DNA of 64,000 nt from a phage. A model generated the notes under the pieces. The model saw only the letters and a program-made list of their open reading frames with translations, made no database searches and was not told the origin of the DNA. Both the position numbers and the translations under genes were made by a program. Below, one piece after another: positions 12,279-39,751 of the stretch (position 1 is its first letter; every line of letters begins with the position of its first letter). Location: assembly GCA_026066175.1 (NCBI GenBank), contig GCA_026066175.1_4721.1. One strand, 5' to 3'.

Positions 12279-13409
12279 TTATTTGGCTTCATTAAAATAA
12301 ATATCAACGGCACGTTCCGTTGCGTAGAGAAGACCCAGATTCACGGTCCCTACCACTTCCGGTGAACCGATGATACGGTTAGCGATACTGGTGCCACTGA
12401 AGATAGCATCAAGGGTGTGCCCGTCTTCGGTTTTGTTCACACCATGACCCACGGAAGAGACAACGGATTTCGCCTGTGCGGCGAAGGTACCTTTATCCCC
12501 CATTCCCGCACCAAGGTCGTAACGCATGAAAATACGGATCGCGATCTGGTTCTCACCTAACGGATTACCGTCTATTCTCACGTTACTGTTATTGATGCGT
12601 CCCGTTGTTGCTTCGTTGAGTTTCAGTTCCTTAACACGTTTAGCTCGCGCCTTATCAGCGTCACCCACAAGTGCTGCCATGGTTTCGCTCATGTCTTCAA
12701 TCTGAGCGCGGTACAACACATCGATCTGTACGACTTCACCATGCACGTCAGCGCGTGGGTTATACTGACTCATACGGCGTAACGCTTCAACCGCTTCCTG
12801 ACTTTCATCGCTCAGATCGGTTGCAATAGGTTCTTCCAGTGTTGCCAGGATCGTCCGAGGTTCAACATGATCGCCGATTTTCACCAAACCACGAATGTTG
12901 AGATGAGCGTCAACAATGAGCGTACGGCTCTTAATCGATGGGGTTACGAGACGATCGGCAAGATTGTCGAAGATATACGAACTGTCCTCGTGCGTTTCTG
13001 GAATATCCAGAATACCAACCAGAGACAACACGCCTGCGCGCCAAACAACCTGACCTGGGTTCCACCAATCCCGTTTAAAATAAAGACGATGGAAAACCAC
13101 TACATCCTGGTCCTTAACGCGATCCCCGACTTTATAATCGGTAATGAGATCGTGAGGATAATACTTACCTGGTCCTTTCCCGATTATCGTACCGAGTTGG
13201 AAAACCTCTTCCCCTAATTCTGGATCGTCGTATTGTATCGTAAGCGCTGTTTTGGTGACCTTCTTCACAACACCATCGCCTTGAGCAGCTGCTGCGAAGA
13301 GTTTACCAACACGATGCGCGATAACAGTCTCGCCACCAGTGCGCCATGGTTGTACGTCGTAACCTTCAGCGGCTATCATGCGGTTGTGTTGGATGCCTAT
13401 AAACACCAA
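12279..13409 (-). CDS. multisubunit RNA polymerase beta-like subunit, central fragment (possible downstream exon)
   Basis: By-eye alignment to bacterial RpoB: FIGIQHNRMIAA resembles the conserved ANRALMG segment; IRIFMRYDLGAGMGDKGTFAAQAKSVV resembles [26 protein letters not shown]. Track start is TTG with no SD and the frame is open for 8 codons upstream, consistent with an exon. Not database-verified. Confidence 0.5.
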   Translation of the reverse strand: MVFIGIQHNRMIAAEGYDVQPWRTGGETVIAHRVGKLFAAAAQGDGVVKKVTKTALTIQYDDPELGEEVFQLGTIIGKGPGKYYPHDLITDYKVGDRVKDQDVVVFHRLYFKRDWWNPGQVVWRAGVLSLVGILDIPETHEDSSYIFDNLADRLVTPSIKSRTLIVDAHLNIRGLVKIGDHVEPRTILATLEEPIATDLSDESQEAVEALRRMSQYNPRADVHGEVVQIDVLYRAQIEDMSETMAALVGDADKARAKRVKELKLNEATTGRINNSNVRIDGNPLGENQIAIRIFMRYDLGAGMGDKGTFAAQAKSVVSSVGHGVNKTEDGHTLDAIFSGTSIANRIIGSPEVVGTVNLGLLYATERAVDIYFNEAK

Positions 13410-13733
13410 TCTCTTGGGCGAATTTAGTTCTTATTCAGTATTAACATACCGTTACCGAAATAAGACTGAGATTAGATTGTTCAGATAAGGTCGTTAATCT
13501 TATCCCGGAGGTGATGATAGGCACATCACCTCCCGCTTACGTTCTCACGCAAGAGCAGACTATATCACATCTCGTTTCAAACGGTGCTTCTTCAGCACCT
13601 CAACGAGAGTTCACTTCTTCCCAGCGCATCCAGCGCCATTCTCTTATCCAAGGAGAATGCCTCACTCGAGGGGTACAGGGGGATGAATCCCTTAGTCGTT
13701 GAACCGTCACCCTAGAACGTTTCACAACGATCC

Positions 13734-14945
13734 TTAGGCGATTGGCTGCGGATTACCCTTGGCCTGCGGACCACGAACTTTTGTCGCGGTCAACTCTTCA
13801 TTTTTAAAGCCTGCTTCACGAGCAATACGTCTCGCTTCTCGCACGTCTAACGTTTCCGTTTCCGCTTTGGCTGAAGGCAGCATTGGGCGTCCCCGCAATT
13901 CAATGAATCTCGTCCATACGTCACCGTATAAACGGACCCGCTCTTTGTAAACAGAATAGTAGATATAACGTTTTCCGTCAGGAAATTTAGTCATTCCATC
14001 CGACTTTAAACGGTAATTGAGTAACGTAGTAGATATACCCATTTCTTCAGCGCAATCGACGGCCGAAAGGTACAACAGAGGTACATCATTTTCAGGAATG
14101 ACGACAATAGCACGTTTGTTGGTTGTCTTCTCCAACTCCAGGATACTATCTTCGACTTCTCGCCATGGCGTCTCATCAGTAACCCACTTAACTTGATAAC
14201 AACCATTAACGACAGGTTGGTTCTTGTCGTTAACGTACATCGACGCAGTGGATAACTTAACACCAATGTGATTCGCGAATTCAGTCAATGATTCGAAAAG
14301 ATGAATCTCTTTTGTTATCGTTGACCTTGCAATCACACCCTTACTTCCCGTATCCGTCAACGTTGCTAACTCGTATTTGGTGGGAATACGCCATGGTTCA
14401 TCGCCGTAATCTTTGCGGTACTGCTTACGTTCAGGAAACGCTCGCTGTTTGCCTCTATAGACACGATGATGAATGAAGTCGATATTCACACCAAGATCGC
14501 GTGCCGCTTCCGTCATGGATGGATATCTGGTTACAACACCGGTATCAACATCACGAACCTGAATAGGTTTACCGTAGGCAGCAATTGAACGTTTACGCAT
14601 GTTCATAATGCGAGCATGCTGATTGTTCTCTTTCTGCGTAACCCATTCAAGATTGTCATTCTCGGCGTTACCGTCGGGATCAAGGTAGTTATTAAGTCTG
14701 TTGCCGTCCTTGTGGTTCACATGGAGCAAATGCGCATCATCGATGTTACGGAACGTTAACATTAGAAGCCTGTGCATGGAACGGTAAACCAATGTTCCAT
14801 CGTGACCTCGAAACGAATAACGATAATACCCAGCAATGATGGTGGGCAAATATTCAAACTTCGATTCCTTGTTACGCAATGTTCCATCTATGGATATCTC
14901 CAGGAACGGGAATTCCGGTACGGTCTTAAATACCTTCTCACTCAT
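13734..14945 (-). CDS. HNH homing endonuclease with NUMOD-like DNA-binding repeats
   Basis: HVNHKDGNRLNN...NLEWVTQKENNQHA HNH motif near the N-terminus; three helix-turn-helix-like repeats (TEAARDLGV, TEFANHIGV, VDCAEEMGI). AAGAGGAA SD before the ATG and a TATATTAC-type motif ~45 nt upstream. Confidence 0.8.
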   Translation of the reverse strand: MSEKVFKTVPEFPFLEISIDGTLRNKESKFEYLPTIIAGYYRYSFRGHDGTLVYRSMHRLLMLTFRNIDDAHLLHVNHKDGNRLNNYLDPDGNAENDNLEWVTQKENNQHARIMNMRKRSIAAYGKPIQVRDVDTGVVTRYPSMTEAARDLGVNIDFIHHRVYRGKQRAFPERKQYRKDYGDEPWRIPTKYELATLTDTGSKGVIARSTITKEIHLFESLTEFANHIGVKLSTASMYVNDKNQPVVNGCYQVKWVTDETPWREVEDSILELEKTTNKRAIVVIPENDVPLLYLSAVDCAEEMGISTTLLNYRLKSDGMTKFPDGKRYIYYSVYKERVRLYGDVWTRFIELRGRPMLPSAKAETETLDVREARRIAREAGFKNEELTATKVRGPQAKGNPQPIA

Positions 14946-14985
14946 TGACTATATTCCTCTTGTGCAGTGAAACTAACTACACTTT

Positions 14986-14997
14986 CGTAATATAGCC
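14986..14997 (-). promoter_or_regulatory. candidate early promoter motif upstream of the HNH gene (GGCTATATTACG on the transcribed strand)
   Basis: Plus-strand CGTAATATAGCC in the 75-nt gap between the beta-like ORF stop and the HNH start. Confidence 0.4.
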
Positions 14998-15020
14998 TTA
15001 ATTCTGTTTACATTGAAGCC

Positions 15021-18000
15021 TTAATCATCTCTATCAGCAGCAGGTACTGCAAGTGCTGATGTACTCATTATTGACGAGCTACCATCCGTTTTCTCGTCGT
15101 AGGGTTTCGTTTCACCGTATACAGACACAATGTTTGCGTTAGGTGCGAGGTAAGCAGAAATACCTACGTCCCCACTATCCTTCGTACCTTCGGATACAAC
15201 ACCAATGTCCGACTTGTCGTACTCACGATCGCGTGCGCGTCGAAGCGATGTTTTCGAACGACCCCCGATACCGGTCATCGTTGCTTCTTCACCCTGCTTG
15301 ATATCCAGCATCGGGTTGGTTTCATCGATGACGATAGAAGCACTGTCGTCAAGGATTTGGTTCCAAACGCTCACCGGACTGATTGAGATCTTCTGTCGGT
15401 TGCCTTGGCTGCTGTTCTCGTTTTGACGAATAGCACCAACCAGATCCTTATACACCAACTCAGCGAACTTATCGTACGTTTTGAAGCGCTGGTAGTTCAC
15501 GTCGTTCGTGTTAGGTGCCCAATCGTCCAGAAGCAGTTCAACCGCACGTAATAACAACATGGCGAAATCAGTCGGTTCGCCCATGTTCTGTAATAACGTA
15601 CGACTTACCGGGTCGACGAAAAGACGCTCCATGAGTTCAAGTTCGCGAAGATGACGAACCTTAAGACCTGCACCATCGACAACGTTAAAATAGATATCCC
15701 GATTGTCGAAAGCACCTCGAGCGTAACCAATGTAGTTACGGTATTCGTTGAATCCGCCTAACAACAATGTCGTCATTCGATCATCTTTACTGAAGATCAA
15801 ACTTTCATCGTCGAAGCTCACCGCGAATTCATCCGATGCTAATCCCATACGAGAACCACGAGGTACCGTACGGTAGTTCGCTTTAAGATGTTCTAATAAC
15901 GGTGTAAGACCACCTAAGTAACTTAACACAACACCAACCGGAATACGTACGCCCATGAACTCAAGGTCAGCGGCTTCGATGGGCATCTTCGCGGCATTGA
16001 TACCGAAGAAATCAGGGAACGTTCCAACCGGCGTTGGGGTTTGATTCGGTTCGTAAACGTATAACTGATTCTGACCATCCACCGCCAGGAATTCGCCGTT
16101 GGTGTTTTTGGCGAACGTTAAGAATCCACCCGCCAGCTGTTCGGTGAATAAATCTTCACCGATGTGTTCCGGCAACGTTTTGATATCGAGGCGTATGTCC
16201 CAATCCGCAAATTGGATTTGGGTGTAGTTACGTGCAAGCACCGCGAAGTAATACGGAACTTTGACAGACGGATCAAAGACGTTACCACGTTTTAAGGTGG
16301 TTAAGGGCGAGGTTTTATCGTAATACATCGCTGTGAGTTGACGTGTTAACCAACGACCAGCATTATTAACCACGCGTTCTGAACGCTTAACGAACACCTT
16401 ACCGTAGGCGGTACTCAACGCAACTTCGGATGACGATACCTTTCTGATTGGTTTATCGACACGTTGTTTACGCATTCGATATTTAATGCCGTTAACGACA
16501 TAAATGCCGTCCTTACGAACCTTCGGTAACATCACCGGGAACGTGGTCGGAACACCGCCTACCGGAGCCAGCTTGATCGTGATGACCTGGTAATCACCCA
16601 TCACGTCAACAACATCTTCAACTTTATATCCGGTAACAGGATAGCCCGCTTGCTGCACCGCCACAACGGCTGCTGCGATGTCCTTTTGCATGACATGTTC
16701 GACGTAGTGTTTATCCCATACGGCAAGCGTCGATTTGCACAAGCTCTTATCAACGATAACGTCCGCTTCCGGCATCACCTTCTCAGGTGCTAATTTCGCG
16801 GCTTTTGGTTTAACCTCAACGTATTCAGCAAGCGTGAGTCCAGAACCGTCAGGTGCTTCAATTTCATGAATCGCGTCAGCGTTACGCATCGCTGCTTTAT
16901 ATTGAACGCCGCTTAATTGACCAGCATCCGCGAGGTCGCTTGCACGTACCAGCACTGCATCGGATAACGACTGAATATATTCACCGTGCGTTTTCGGTAA
17001 CGTTGCCGCATCGAAGACATCAACTTTTTCTTCCGGCATGTCATCGTTGACAACCTCAAAGAGATCATCGGTGATGTCTTGATCTTCGTCCGGTTGAAAA
17101 TCGGGCTGAACTTCAACGCCAGGGACTTCACGAACATCTTCAAACGCACGTTCAACAACCGCGTTCCATGCTTCAGCGTCGTCATCTTCATCCGATCCTC
17201 CGATCAACTCGCTTTCCAGTTCATCGGGGTCAAGAACGGTATCAAGGTCCTCACCGTTAGGAAGCACGACATCACGTTCATCGTACTCCGCATCGGGACT
17301 GTCTGCGAGAATATCACGCTCTTGACGAAGAACCTGCTCCTCTTCTTGTTTCTGTTCTTCTTCATTGGCGCTCTGCGACCACAGACGGGTTACCGCCATC
17401 ATCCAACGACGCTGGAACGTTTCAAGCGTTGTCTTATCAAGTTCCTCGCCTTCCTTCGCTAAACCCGAACGCCATTCTTCCATTAAACCAAGATTCAGAG
17501 TAAAGAAATAGACGCCGTCCGTAAATACAACGTTAAGCTTATCCAGCGAAGCACGGTCCAATGATACCATCGTGCTGTTCTCACGATCGACACCTAACCA
17601 ACGGAAGAAGTCAAAGAACGACAGCTCCTCGGAGGTGGCAAAATTCATGAGGTTATTACGGGTTGGGGCTTGTTGTGTCGTACGCATCAACGATATCTTC
17701 GGTAACGTCGACGGGATACGGAATAACAAGAACTGCTGACGGTCGCTTTGTTGGGCGATCTCGTTTGCTTGCGTCCAAATCGTTTTACGCACGTTGAACC
17801 ATTCATCATACCAACGGGTCAGTGTCGGACGATAGATGTACATGTGGTTAAGATGCGCATAGTTAGCCACGATCTGGGCGTTGATGTTCTTCTCAACCTT
17901 GCTAAGATCGGTGACCAAACGAAAACGACGATGCGATGCACGGTAATCCAGTTTCGCACGCGGTAGCTGGAATCGCTGATCGCGTCGAGGTGCGCCTTGC

Positions 18001-18233: not shown

Positions 18234-19913
18234 TTAGGCTCCACGAGGTCCCGTTAAGTTGCGTAATAGGAACGCAACCGTATCGTAACCAATATCAATG
18301 TTGAATTTATTTTTACCGCTTACCCAGAAAGCACGCTTCTTGTGCGAGTTGGTAATTTCGTCGATGGCTTCCATGGAATAAAGAACGTTAACAGAGACCG
18401 TATCACCGTCGAAATCGGCCCCGAGCCCGGCGAGAAACACTTGGCCGACTTGGGTCGTTTCTACGAACGATGCTTTTAATGACCAATCTGGGTATTCCCA
18501 CGCCATATAACGATAGCCTTCCATCGGTTGCCAGCTATCGTCGAGTTCTATTCTCGGTTTTGTATTAACCGTCGTTCTCACATAGCAAGTTAACGGTATA
18601 ACTGACTGCATCCCGGATACCGGATAACGTGTAACCATCGCACCGAGTTTATTCCAAAGATGGTAACCACTCAGATAAATCAACTCGCAATAGGTAATTG
18701 GGTGAACATTCGCACCAGGTTTGTTAAGCATCTCTGGTGGTAATTCACTCATACCACGGAACAGCCGGAATGAGTTGTTGTTCACATAGACCAAACAGAG
18801 ATAGCGACCATTCACCATGATAGGTTCGTTACGTACACCAGGATCGCTTAGGGTGTTTAATAAACGTTCGATGCCGTCCCAGGTTGTAAAGTCATCGATG
18901 GTATCTGGGTCTAGCGTGACACGTTCACGTTCCATCGTTTCGGTATCGATAAGCTCAGCTTCAGTAACATCGCGAACAAAGATTTCTTGTAATATCCCTG
19001 TACGTAACGCATGTTGCGTTATCGGAAGGGCTGCTTTGCTCATCTGGTATAGGCCGAGCTGTACAGACGTACACGATGTTTGGTTTGGAGAGCCAAGAAC
19101 TTCGGTCGTTGGAATAACTGCTGAAATAACGTTACGGGTTGAGTTCCAAACACGACGTGAACCGAACTTACCTTGGAAGATCCCTTTCTTACCCTGGAAC
19201 ATATCCAACAGCAATGCGTAGATATCATTGAAGGTTCTTTGCAGGCTCCAGCGCTGTCCGTCGTAGACAGGATCGTTGTAGTCCTTTAACCCATCGGGAA
19301 CGGTATTGGAGATAGCAAGGAAACGACGATAAAGCTCCGTGATTTCTTGTTCGCTTTCATACCCGCCTTCTTTTACTTCTATTTCACGAAGACCAGCAGG
19401 TAACACCAATAAATGACGGGTCATCGCTTTGAACATGTTTTCTTCGACAACTTTAATACGCAGTTCTCGTTGCGCTGAACCTGTTGAAACGAACATGATC
19501 TCCGCAACGTGTTGTGCGAAGAAACCGTAGCCGGTTTGTCCCGTTAACGCATCAGCGGCAACGAAATCACGTTGTTCTGGATCCCATCGCGCATAAGCTT
19601 TACCGGACATGATATCGCCATAAAGGTGTTTCAATCGAATAAGGCGATCGTAAATGACCGGATGCAAGATTTCCACTTTACACTCGATGACCGCAAAGCG
19701 GCGATCACGATCTTCGCTTCCCGCGCTCCCAAAAATGGTGTACGAATAAAAACCATCGTCATGGAAATTACCCGTGCTCGGGTCGCGGATACTCATGCTG
19801 GTAATCTTAGGAAGGAAACGCAACTGCTGCTTATCAAGATGCAGTATACTGATATTGAACGGCTCTCTGACTTTAGCCATGGATGCACTCCTTAAATAAG
19901 GCGGCGGTATCAT
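18234..19913 (-). CDS. multisubunit RNA polymerase beta-prime-like subunit, N-terminal fragment (virion RNAP-like)
   Basis: Contains GADFDGDTVSV (universal beta-prime catalytic NADFDGD motif), GIFQGKFGSRRVWNSTRNVI (cf. RpoC [20 protein letters not shown]) and LVLPAGLRE (cf. VLPPDLRP). The ORF ends ~50 aa after DFDGD, as expected for the split beta-prime of phiKZ-like phage RNAPs. Confidence 0.8.
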   Translation of the reverse strand: MIPPPYLRSASMAKVREPFNISILHLDKQQLRFLPKITSMSIRDPSTGNFHDDGFYSYTIFGSAGSEDRDRRFAVIECKVEILHPVIYDRLIRLKHLYGDIMSGKAYARWDPEQRDFVAADALTGQTGYGFFAQHVAEIMFVSTGSAQRELRIKVVEENMFKAMTRHLLVLPAGLREIEVKEGGYESEQEITELYRRFLAISNTVPDGLKDYNDPVYDGQRWSLQRTFNDIYALLLDMFQGKKGIFQGKFGSRRVWNSTRNVISAVIPTTEVLGSPNQTSCTSVQLGLYQMSKAALPITQHALRTGILQEIFVRDVTEAELIDTETMERERVTLDPDTIDDFTTWDGIERLLNTLSDPGVRNEPIMVNGRYLCLVYVNNNSFRLFRGMSELPPEMLNKPGANVHPITYCELIYLSGYHLWNKLGAMVTRYPVSGMQSVIPLTCYVRTTVNTKPRIELDDSWQPMEGYRYMAWEYPDWSLKASFVETTQVGQVFLAGLGADFDGDTVSVNVLYSMEAIDEITNSHKKRAFWVSGKNKFNIDIGYDTVAFLLRNLTGPRGA

Positions 19914-34704: not shown

Positions 34705-36195
34705 TTATTTTTTGCTCGGACGATTCAGCGCAGGCACCGGATTTTTCGGTTGCTTTGTTTTTTCATCCATCCAGTACGGGAAGTATTCACCTGTACGCAT
34801 GCGCAGTAAGTCCATGGTGGAAAGGAACGGAAGCGGATTTGGGTCGTCCAGATACGTCCAATAACCACGTGTGTTTAACAGTACATCCCAGTCGAAACCT
34901 TTTGCTTTAAGATCGTCGTACAGTTCCTGTGGAGTGCAATAAAGCTGTGGGTTCTCGTAAACTTCTTGACGCCAGAGATTATGCATCTGGCACAACTCCG
35001 AGGTAATCTCCAGAGCGCGTTGCAGATATTCATCTTCCTCGCAAAGAGAACGAATGGTTGTACGCTGTAATGCAACATCCGGATAAATATCCAAATACAC
35101 CGTAGAAGCACCCTCAGCAGGTTTACCACCGGATGCATGCATACCCCAACCACGCATCCATTCTTTATCGCGTAGGTAATGGTATTCTGTTAACGACGGT
35201 TTAACGCCTTCGCTCTGACTGACGACAATCGGAAACGGTAAACCTGTCGGTCCGTTTTTAGCACGCATGTTAAAGACTTGAATCAACTGCAGATCAGTAT
35301 CCCCGATAAGGTTGTCACCAGGCCCACGCGGATAAAGGACGCGTTTATCAGCGTTCTGAAGAATCGTCAGTTTATCGATTTTCCAGAGGTTATTCGTATA
35401 AAACGTGAAGCGTTCCGGGACGTTCTTAAACTTCTCATCGCCCTTAAACCCTTTCAGTTTTCGTACCGGTTGCTGTCCCGGCATACCACCAACGTTTACA
35501 CCGTCACCAAGGTGGGCGGTCATGGTAATGTAGATACCCGCCGACGCTGTGAGTACTGGCATCTGTGATAAAATCTGGCTTTTCGCTGCTGCGGAACGCA
35601 TCGCTTCAGCATTCAGTTTTGCACCACCTGCGGTTTCTTTATCGAACAGTGCATCAACGGCATCGATTGGTAATCCAGAGAAACTGTCAATGAGGACAAC
35701 GGTCGGTAACCACCAGGTGTAGTTCTCGCCGTGTTTATTAATAAACGGAACAGCTTTACGTTGTGACTTGTCTTTAACTTTGTCATCACGGAATTTCTTG
35801 ATTGCGTCGAACCAGATGTTGCCGCTCATCTGAACAGCGTCAGTGATAAACACACGTTCTTCTTCGAACAGGTCAACACCAGCGATATTAGACATGTTCA
35901 TCGCGAGCGTGAGGATACGGGTTGTCGTTAACGACATTTCGGTGTCATAAACGCTACTGTTACTGTTAGCGTAACGATCGATAACACGTAACAAGCGAAA
36001 CATTATGAACGTGGTTTTGTTCATGTTGCCGCGAGCGCCTGCGCCCTCAACGAGCATCATGCCGCCATTACAAATGCTTTCGCCGTGCTTACCGATGTAG
36101 TACCGACCACCAGATGTGGGAATATCCATCAAGCAACCAATGTTGAGATTAAAACGCATCTCTTCACCAGGAGAAAGGTACTTATTAAGATTCAT
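34705..36195 (-). CDS. hypothetical protein (496 aa)
   Basis: Long ORF; first gene of the minus operon diverging from 36294..37136. Confidence 0.65.
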   Translation of the reverse strand: MNLNKYLSPGEEMRFNLNIGCLMDIPTSGGRYYIGKHGESICNGGMMLVEGAGARGNMNKTTFIMFRLLRVIDRYANSNSSVYDTEMSLTTTRILTLAMNMSNIAGVDLFEEERVFITDAVQMSGNIWFDAIKKFRDDKVKDKSQRKAVPFINKHGENYTWWLPTVVLIDSFSGLPIDAVDALFDKETAGGAKLNAEAMRSAAAKSQILSQMPVLTASAGIYITMTAHLGDGVNVGGMPGQQPVRKLKGFKGDEKFKNVPERFTFYTNNLWKIDKLTILQNADKRVLYPRGPGDNLIGDTDLQLIQVFNMRAKNGPTGLPFPIVVSQSEGVKPSLTEYHYLRDKEWMRGWGMHASGGKPAEGASTVYLDIYPDVALQRTTIRSLCEEDEYLQRALEITSELCQMHNLWRQEVYENPQLYCTPQELYDDLKAKGFDWDVLLNTRGYWTYLDDPNPLPFLSTMDLLRMRTGEYFPYWMDEKTKQPKNPVPALNRPSKK

Positions 36196-37187: not shown

Positions 37188-37619
37188 TTATTTGCCGTAT
37201 AGATGTACCACTCGTTGTGTCGTAGGAACGCAGACTCTTACCAGAAGCTTTTTAATCTCCTGACGAATCGTTGCTTTATCATCATAGTAAAGCCATGGCG
37301 GAACGCGCTGCATGATACGCTGCACAGCTTCATCGTAGTTCGTCGTTTCGTTAAGTAACGTCTCACTATCCAGATCTTTCCATGCAGTGATGCCCAGTCG
37401 CGCAGCAAACATCAGCGCTGAAACTGACTCCGCTATCTCCAGTCGCTCATTCATATCCGCAAGACCTTTTAGCATGATGTAATTATCATCGTGCCGATGT
37501 AAGGTACCAAACAAACTTCCAAAGAGGAGGATGCGTTTGGCTTTTGCGGTTAAGAGGAACGACAGGAGAGCGTGTTTCAACGGTTGTTTCTCACGTTCTA
37601 CCTGTTCGACCATCTCCAT
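37188..37619 (-). CDS. hypothetical protein
   Basis: 143 aa ORF. Confidence 0.6.
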   Translation of the reverse strand: MEMVEQVEREKQPLKHALLSFLLTAKAKRILLFGSLFGTLHRHDDNYIMLKGLADMNERLEIAESVSALMFAARLGITAWKDLDSETLLNETTNYDEAVQRIMQRVPPWLYYDDKATIRQEIKKLLVRVCVPTTQRVVHLYGK

Positions 37620-37622
37620 TGA

Positions 37623-39149
37623 TTACTCCAACACATAACGTGGGTTACTGTATATGTTAGCCCATATCCCCACATCGTTACCTGATTCAATAATCACAGC
37701 AAAACGAAACGCGATATCAGACTCACGATAGGTTACTGCATACGCTTTCGTTTCGGGCGATGCTAAATAGCTCAAGTTCAGACGTTGAGGCAGGTCTAAC
37801 CCCAAGGACATGGTACACGACGTAACACCTTGTTTATCAGGGTTCAGTCTGTAGTTCATGTCCACTTTCAGGCTTTTCGTCACCTGCGTAATCGCACTAT
37901 GCACTTTGGTCACCGGTTTCCCTTTCTTGTCCTTTTCTGTTTCGAAAAGCACATCGGTAATATCAGTGACAACCAAACGCGGTGTGGATTCACGGTTATT
38001 GTCCAGCCATTCATCCAGTAACGTCTTCAAGAAGTTCAAGGAATCAATCGCACGCCAAGCAAGGTTCGGTGGATTACATGCTTCCATGAGAATCGCGGTG
38101 TTCGATCCACCCAACGGAAGATGCACGCTCTTACCGAGGCCCGTTGGACGCATGGTAAGATCGCACTCGCCCTCAAGAATATCGCGATGGTATTGACGAT
38201 GATGAAGGTTATCGATGTATGCAATATACACTGATTCCGTTGTCCCATGCTCTAATACCCGAGATGCATGCATACGCATAATCTCGACAGCATCATCTGG
38301 TTTGCTTAGATAGACAACGCTATACGCACTATCGCTGATTCTTTTCCCTAATTCAAGACGTCCTTTATTATCTTTATCGGTGTTACCACCGAAGTAGATA
38401 TAGCGACCATCTTTCGCACGTTCTTGCTGCTGGTTGGTGGTGAAGTAACAGCGCGAGAACGTAAAGAACGGGCTTATTTCCGGCTCGGGGTTCCAATAAC
38501 CTTTCGCTGGAAGCTCTCGGCGTATTTGGGTTCGTACAGCCCAGTCCTGGTTTTGTGACAGATACGTTCCACGCGTCGCCAGCATATCGGCACGCTCGTT
38601 ACCGATATTGCCCTCGTGTCCAGGAACGTATCGCAGCGAAATATCGATAGCGTCGCGCTTTGCATCCCTGATTGCACTATCGAGTTTTCGCCACCGTTCA
38701 GCATTCAACAACGGTTTATTATCGGATTTCACCCAGTTGTTTTCTCGCCAGTTAGCAAGATGGTTGGTGGTACCTACAACAACATATTGGCTATCCGACA
38801 ATAGCTGAATCCGTTTTGCCCCCTTCGCTTTTCCAAGTTCAATCGCACGAATCGCTGCGTCCAACTCCGCCTGATTGTTCGTCACGTTGAAACCTAACGC
38901 TTCTAACTCATCCACGTACTCTTTGGGTTCGACCAGCACAGCGTCTTTAGGAAAGTCGAGTTTAGGATCGACGTAACCGTATTGCGTCGGTTTGGGCTTT
39001 CCACTTTTTGAAGGTTCCAAGGTGCCTTTCACTTCTTTCATCAAATCGTAGGTGTAGCCATGTACGCCATAGCCACCGTACCCACTTGACGTTGGACGGG
39101 ATCCCCCGTCACAATAGAAAACGGCACCAAGCTCGTTATTTCCTGCCAT
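37623..39149 (-). CDS. RNase HI-like domain protein fused to a ~320 aa C-terminal domain of unknown function
   Basis: N-terminal ~190 aa carry RNase H signatures: YCDGGSR (Asp1), NNQAELDAAIRAIE (Glu), LLSDSQYVV (Asp), VPGHEGNIGNERADMLA (His/Asp; cf. E. coli RNase HI VKGHAGHPENERCDELA). Start trimmed to ATG with GAGG SD. Confidence 0.7.
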   Translation of the reverse strand: MAGNNELGAVFYCDGGSRPTSSGYGGYGVHGYTYDLMKEVKGTLEPSKSGKPKPTQYGYVDPKLDFPKDAVLVEPKEYVDELEALGFNVTNNQAELDAAIRAIELGKAKGAKRIQLLSDSQYVVVGTTNHLANWRENNWVKSDNKPLLNAERWRKLDSAIRDAKRDAIDISLRYVPGHEGNIGNERADMLATRGTYLSQNQDWAVRTQIRRELPAKGYWNPEPEISPFFTFSRCYFTTNQQQERAKDGRYIYFGGNTDKDNKGRLELGKRISDSAYSVVYLSKPDDAVEIMRMHASRVLEHGTTESVYIAYIDNLHHRQYHRDILEGECDLTMRPTGLGKSVHLPLGGSNTAILMEACNPPNLAWRAIDSLNFLKTLLDEWLDNNRESTPRLVVTDITDVLFETEKDKKGKPVTKVHSAITQVTKSLKVDMNYRLNPDKQGVTSCTMSLGLDLPQRLNLSYLASPETKAYAVTYRESDIAFRFAVIIESGNDVGIWANIYSNPRYVLE

Positions 39150-39199
39150 TGTAAACCTCATTAATCATTGTCCGTATGATAGCCCAAAGTTGTACGGTA

Positions 39200-39751
39200 T
39201 TACCGATTCTGTTCTGTTGATGTCGATTGATTGCGATTAACCTTCATTGACTGTAGTTTTCCTCCATTAATCACGCACTGATTGCGTTGTTCAACAGTAG
39301 TGAGGCTATTGCAGACATAGTAAGTATCAATGAAACGATCCACGCGTTCTTGAAACTTCCTTTCATCAGCTTGTTCTCGTTCGTAAGTTCGTAACGCACG
39401 ATCAACTTCACCCTGCAGGATCCGGTTCTGTTCAACCATACTGTCGATTAAACGGCCTCTTACTTCGTTCGATGTGTAGAGTTGACGAATCAGTTCTCGG
39501 TTGGTATCACGCGCATAACGCAATGTTGCATTCTCCTGACGTAAGCTATTAACATCAGCCATCAAGGTAATGATTTTTTCGCCAGCAAATAACGTCACGA
39601 TACCCAATACGATGAAAAAACCCGTAATCAAGAATATCGAGGACTGCCGAGCTCCATCTCGACGAGAACGTGCAGGCGGTCGCTTACTTCGCCGAAACAG
39701 CTCGCGAAGAAAAGGGAAAAGCCAGGGCAACGCCTTGAGTGTAGTAAACAT
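39200..39751 (-). CDS. predicted membrane protein with one TM helix and a coiled-coil-like C-terminal region
   Basis: ORF track 39200..39895 trimmed to ATG (MFTTLKALPW...) with AAGGA SD; IFLITGFFIVLGIVTLFAG hydrophobic helix, then a heptad-like charged region. Confidence 0.5.
   Translation of the reverse strand: MFTTLKALPWLFPFLRELFRRSKRPPARSRRDGARQSSIFLITGFFIVLGIVTLFAGEKIITLMADVNSLRQENATLRYARDTNRELIRQLYTSNEVRGRLIDSMVEQNRILQGEVDRALRTYEREQADERKFQERVDRFIDTYYVCNSLTTVEQRNQCVINGGKLQSMKVNRNQSTSTEQNR

Follow-up and report, generated by a model that had tools for sequence, protein, structure and literature searches.

An RNase HI joined to a sliding-clamp-like domain in a relative of jumbo phage Goslar, a probable accessory subunit of the phage replisome

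Jumbo phages of the phiKZ type rely on a split B-family polymerase to copy more than 200 kb of DNA, and a processivity factor had not been found among them, a gap that was flagged in 2011 (PMC3201878). For phiKZ-like phages that survey, by Kazlauskas and Venclovas, described a split PolB whose C-terminus carries a putative clamp-binding motif; a clamp itself was not detected, and the authors allowed that one might have diverged beyond recognition (PMC3201878). A gene in the window, by which we mean the whole 64,000-nucleotide stretch of phage DNA analysed here, encodes a protein that begins as an RNase HI and then runs on for some 300 residues. This raises the question of what the extension is, and of what the protein as a whole does for a phage of this kind. 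The gene, here called rhc, and its surroundings are as follows.

37623..39149, minus strand: rhc (RNase H-clamp), 508 codons and a stop; orthologous to Goslar gp190 and phiKZ gp155 (Nlp2)
39156..39159, minus strand: GAGG, a Shine-Dalgarno-like element 6 nt 5' of the ATG at 39149 and inside the longest ORF (start 39161)
37188..37619, minus strand: 143-aa gene of unknown function (PHROG 9853) downstream of rhc, placed like phiKZ gp154; given as context
39200..39751, minus strand: gene upstream of rhc, 183 aa according to the Goslar gp189 annotation, placed like phiKZ gp156; given as context
34705-36195, minus strand: UvsX/RecA-like recombinase, 496 aa, PHROG 97 (E 1.8e-32), no Pfam match; two genes downstream of rhc

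The longest ORF over rhc in a six-frame listing is 37623..39161 on the minus strand, 512 aa, and residue numbers below are those of this ORF except where stated. Translation probably begins at the second in-frame ATG, at 39149, to give a product of 508 aa. This start, which was also that of an earlier note made from the letters alone, is preferred because of the GAGG element upstream, because the Goslar homologue is annotated with 508 aa from the equivalent Met, and because all 26 retrieved homologues start, in alignment, at the same residue. Only 3 nt separate the rhc stop codon from the start of the 143-aa downstream gene, and co-transcription of phiKZ154-156.1 with phiKZ155 has been reported (PMC12571901). 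A scan for sigma-70 promoters and terminators around rhc returned sites no more numerous than in shuffled sequence, and was set aside because phages of this type use their own RNA polymerases. The recombinase gene is the positional equivalent of phiKZ gp152 (Nlp1), likewise an imported nuclear protein, and the neighbourhood of recombinase and RNase H is kept from phiKZ to Goslar.

The first part of the protein is readily placed.

38550..39149, minus strand: RNase HI domain, residues 5-204 of the 512-aa ORF, with D18, E99, D123, H182 and D192 and with the basic-protrusion region present
38904..39050, minus strand: insertion of ~45 residues between β2 and β3 (residues ~38-86), a gap when compared with E. 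coli RNase HI

By profile, catalytic residues and fold alike, the protein opens with a genuine type-1 RNase H (RNase HI) of ~200 residues, as the earlier note had read it. With the Pfam RNase_H entry (PF00075), residues 91-198 score 87.1 bits (E 1.6e-24; gathering cutoff 25.8), while phmmer retrieves around 50 RNase HI or RT-RNase H chains from the PDB sequences (best E 4.5e-16), among them the structures of E. coli and human RNase H1 at E ~5e-16. The motifs FYCDGGS and VPGHEGNIGNERADMLA are both found in the product. In a BLASTP alignment with E. coli RNase HI, which includes the basic-protrusion segment, E99, D123, H182 and D192 fall on E48, D70, H124 and D134, and the conserved β1 motif assigns D18, within FYCDGGS, to D10. 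Four of these residues, D18, E99, D123 and H182, are invariant in 27 aligned sequences reaching down to 24% identity, and the fifth, D192, is present in 26 of the 27. The full-length AlphaFold2 model is confident (pLDDT 88.7, pTM 0.83), and Foldseek matches it, through the N-terminal domain, to E. coli and human RNase H1 with E ~2e-9 and a target TM of 0.72-0.79. Judged by its residues, the domain looks active and would be catalytically competent.

Fold, D-E-D-H-D site and basic protrusion are thus common to the rhc product, E. coli RnhA and the catalytic domain of human RNase H1, and identity to E. coli RNase HI is 32% over the core. Two features set it apart from cellular RNase HI, namely the β2-β3 insertion and the C-terminal clamp-fold domain of ~300 residues discussed below; it also lacks the N-terminal hybrid-binding domain of eukaryotic RNase H1. 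The insertion is the reason that the domain measures ~200 aa rather than 155. It contains near-invariant G62, Y63 and D84, is modelled with pLDDT 86-93 in the full-length protein, and is a family-specific, conserved addition to the RNase H fold.

The second part of the protein could be identified by fold comparison alone, sequence-level approaches having failed.

37626..38519, minus strand: C-terminal sliding-clamp-like domain, residues ~215-512, in two α/β subdomains

The C-terminal ~300 residues have no Pfam match in the full protein, nor in 24 family members at E<=10, clamp families included, and a profile of the domain found no relevant match among PDB sequences. Since both searches were empty, the earlier description of an extension with no recognisable motif was right at the level of sequence. 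By sequence or profile the domain belongs to no clamp family, and it has no sequence similarity to PCNA, Pol III β, T4 gp45 or Hus1/Rad9/Rad1. It does have conserved basic positions (K273, R274, R296, K413, K419, K429, R460 and R486). An internal duplication of the two subdomains was not detected when the N-terminal half was aligned with the C-terminal half in hhalign (probability 0.1%), which is weak evidence, since duplication is often undetectable by sequence in true clamps too.

An AlphaFold2 model of residues 205-512, made from a 24-sequence alignment, is also confident (mean pLDDT 85.5, pTM 0.86). A Foldseek search with this region, which the earlier note had proposed, brought out a sliding-clamp-like fold. 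Against BFVD the top matches are chimallivirus proteins named 'ribonuclease H' (E 1e-20 to 7e-15), and the best outside the family is a phage β clamp (E 4e-3), followed by murid herpesvirus ORF59, DnaN and a giant-virus PCNA; the closest structural relatives among the search results are 9-1-1 checkpoint subunits. On the model, then, the domain has the fold of a clamp protomer, and the present analysis to that extent offers independent computational support for the clamp-fold assignment. The earlier note had also suggested a two-domain nuclease. This is rejected, because the domain matches neither a nuclease fold nor a nuclease family. Two findings had been named there as counting against its reading, a C-terminal domain that matches a common known fusion partner and catalytic Asp/Glu residues that are missing on alignment; a clamp-fold domain is not a usual partner of RNase H, and the residues are present.

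Unlike sliding clamps and the 9-1-1 subunits, the clamp-fold domain of rhc is fused to an enzyme, and the annotation of the phage includes no clamp loader. The processivity subunits of herpesviruses (HSV UL42, HCMV UL44, KSHV PF-8) resemble it in fold and in role, a resemblance from which common descent is not demonstrable, but they have no nuclease domain.

How widespread is the combination? The 5 kb around rhc are 91.4% identical in DNA to Escherichia phage vB_EcoM_Goslar, a jumbo phage of E. coli and a nucleus-forming member of the Chimalliviridae, and elsewhere in the window identity is 87-92%. Goslar gp190 ('ribonuclease', YP_009820929.1) has the same two-domain architecture and the same genomic neighbourhood as rhc, and the two proteins are 96.5% identical over their full length; no functional difference is expected from the ~18 substitutions that separate them. 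The source of the window is nevertheless a distinct Goslar relative, which differs also in its intron content elsewhere in the window (see below). The rhc product matches PHROG 3265 ('ribonuclease', 496 positions) with E 8e-104, residues 10-508 lying on profile positions 5-489, and aligns with phiKZ gp155 end to end (residues 8 to 501 in 508-aa numbering; E 3e-48). At 27% identity phiKZ gp155 is highly diverged in sequence, but it has the same architecture of RNase H and structured C-terminal domain and the same synteny, and it is counted among the core genes of phages that form a nucleus. In the gene order common to the window and phiKZ gp149-157, a virion-RNAP β fragment is followed by two small genes and the RecA/UvsX-like gene; next come a plus-strand gene and a small gene, then the RNase H itself, and after it another small gene and a virion protein on the plus strand. 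With full-length similarity and conserved synteny both found, the rhc product is a member of the Chimalliviridae Rhc/phiKZ155 family (PHROG 3265).

Beyond these phages, tblastn finds the full-length architecture (coverage at least 80%) in 204 phage records, and RAY, RSL2, phiKZ-like Pseudomonas phages and SPN3US are among the matches listed. A profile of the C-terminal domain matches 1,154 clusters at 50% identity, 702 of them at E<=1e-30. The best 150 of the 1,154 are nearly all 470-560 aa long with the domain at the C-terminal end, and in this set fusion of RNase H with the clamp-fold domain is the rule.

The fusion is already known, having been characterised in the almost identical phage Goslar: the abstract of a bioRxiv preprint of 2 October 2026 names the protein Rhc, for RNase H-clamp (PMC13648698). 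As summarised there, Rhc is the essential third subunit of a non-canonical split DNA polymerase, DNAPN-DNAPC-Rhc; it binds DNAPC and is required for genome replication, for which its catalytic activity and its clamp-derived domain are both needed (PMC13648698). Separately it supports the transcription of a subset of late genes, its depletion lowering late transcripts in a pattern that suggests R-loop resolution, and cleavage of RNA:DNA hybrids is implied (PMC13648698). The abstract gives no gp number, and we infer that Rhc is gp190 because the Goslar record has one RNase HI-type locus only and because the architecture is as described. Since a protein 96.5% identical to it is thus already published, the window contributes no more than another, slightly divergent allele. 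Likewise the earlier note's 'unknown function', which was fair from the sequence alone, is out of date given what the abstract says of the Goslar protein. Two of its suggestions have fared better: that the extension targets the enzyme to replication or transcription complexes agrees with the clamp fold in the model and with the DNAPC binding and the replication and late-transcription roles summarised for Goslar Rhc, and action on R-loops agrees with the late-transcription pattern (PMC13648698).

The phiKZ member of the family has been studied independently. phiKZ155 is essential, nuclear and active as an RNase H in vitro, and its knockdown stops both maturation of the nucleus and amplification of the genome (Gerovac et al., Nature 2025, PMC12571901). 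Complementation of the knockdown is nevertheless complete with phiKZ155(D102N), a variant that has no activity in vitro, and the authors propose that the protein's role lies in sensing and not in catalysis (PMC12571901). The protein, as Nlp2, enters the phage nucleus via Imp1/PicA (Kokontis et al., bioRxiv 2024.03.27.586873). There is accordingly a published disagreement, in that nuclease activity is reported as dispensable for complementation in phiKZ and, in the Goslar abstract, as required.

Taking the evidence together, we consider the protein to be very probably an accessory subunit of the replisome, in which an RNase HI and a clamp-derived domain are combined so as to bind DNA and DNAPC, to act as a probable processivity factor, and to remove primers and R-loops inside the phage nucleus. 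The architecture, catalytic residues, clamp-like fold, orthology and synteny are the contribution of the present analysis. The literature supplies the binding to the polymerase, the essentiality, the import into the nucleus and the role in transcription, and we infer that the protein supplies the processivity otherwise missing in phages of this type. In RNA:DNA hybrids, for instance Okazaki primers and R-loops, the N-terminal domain would cut the RNA strand. The clamp-fold domain, presumably derived from the protomer of a DNA sliding clamp, would bind DNA and DNAPC, the polymerase-domain subunit of the split B-family polymerase. By tethering Rhc to both it would make the protein a built-in accessory subunit, and the primer- and R-loop-removing activity would be held at the replisome within the phage nucleus, from which host nucleases are excluded. 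If so, the fusion fills the processivity-factor gap, and one imported protein would join primer and R-loop removal to polymerase tethering in a virus whose DNA is sealed in a protein nucleus.

The Goslar record annotates the split PolB as gp068 (PolB exonuclease domain) and gp244, both outside the equivalent of the window by that annotation, and PHROG scans of the large ORFs neighbouring rhc found no split-polymerase partner genes inside the window. An annotation-level search of the whole Goslar record, which is not proof of absence, found neither a clamp nor a clamp loader, and by analogy with herpesvirus UL42/UL44 Rhc may be independent of a loader. The polymerase-domain subunit gp244 (L009 14314-16467, outside the window) has a C-terminus ending in '...TLLAQDIAASYLPKQETAE', a hydrophobic/aromatic patch loosely like the clamp-binding-like motif TRLISDFY of 2011 and not a canonical PIP box. 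We regard this patch as a candidate docking peptide for the clamp-fold domain of Rhc.

A more specific scheme can be sketched, although we hold it tentatively and think it rather doubtful. The 9-1-1 checkpoint clamps are loaded at 5' recessed junctions. Rhc might similarly be a loader-independent 'half clamp' of a single protomer that recognises R-loop junctions as well as Okazaki fragments at their RNA-primed 5' ends, places the RNase H there and tethers the split PolB, with the β2-β3 insertion as the coupling interface. On this scheme, the disagreement between phiKZ and Goslar over catalysis would come from a second RNase H (phiKZ gp199), whose redundancy with Rhc is lineage-specific.

The phiKZ155(D102N) result is the starting point for a different account, which we judge improbable, in which the main role of the protein is structural or licensing and not enzymatic. 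It would be a scaffold at the nuclear shell or the import site (PicA/Imp1) that couples maturation of the nucleus to the onset of genome amplification, its RNase H fold serving as a nucleic-acid sensor and its C-terminal domain as a platform for protein interactions instead of a DNA clamp. Full complementation by the inactive phiKZ155(D102N), and the sensory role proposed for it (PMC12571901), fit this account, the more directly as D102 aligns with D123 in the window and hence with E. coli D70; so does the dependence of Nlp2 import on specific surfaces of Imp1 (bioRxiv 2024.03.27.586873). Against it, the near-complete conservation of the active site across diverse homologues argues for selection on catalysis, the Goslar abstract has catalysis and the clamp-derived domain both required (PMC13648698), and the fold of the C-terminal domain matches DNA clamps and not known import or scaffold proteins. 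Least likely of all, and very improbable in our view, is that this domain is an unrelated α/β domain, used for example in oligomerisation or for another partner, whose weak clamp match is convergent or an artefact of modelling.

Departures from the usual length of rhc products are seen in both directions. Four long representatives of the family (P0056, P0066, P0067 and P0163; 668-752 aa) were noted. In P0056, P0066 and P0163 GIY-YIG and/or I-TevI DNA-binding domains lie N-terminal to the RNase H core, and P0067 has RNase_H only; these three of the four suggest that homing endonucleases have been inserted in, or fused to, rhc genes. Four others (P0041, P0060, P0080 and P0131; 290-337 aa) consist of the clamp-fold domain alone and may be split or truncated genes.

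Mobile elements are also visible elsewhere in the window. Compared with Goslar, there is an insertion of ~1.6 kb at 13409-15037 on the minus strand, inside a large virion-RNA-polymerase β-like gene (the equivalent of Goslar gp207), which contains the following.

13536-13959, minus strand: group I intron, RF00028 (Rfam 51.4 bits, E 3.9e-10)
13734..14945, minus strand: 403-aa ORF with NUMOD1, I-TevI DNA-binding and weak HNH_3 domains

In its domains the ORF resembles a homing endonuclease. The window in turn lacks, at 18413-18454, the group I intron and gp206 that Goslar has (together ~2.1 kb), so that two phages ~90% identical differ in the mobile introns they contain. Finally, the window runs through the arbitrary point at which the Goslar GenBank record ends and begins. 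From about 41790 onward it corresponds to Goslar position 1 onward, and its source genome is therefore permuted with respect to that record.
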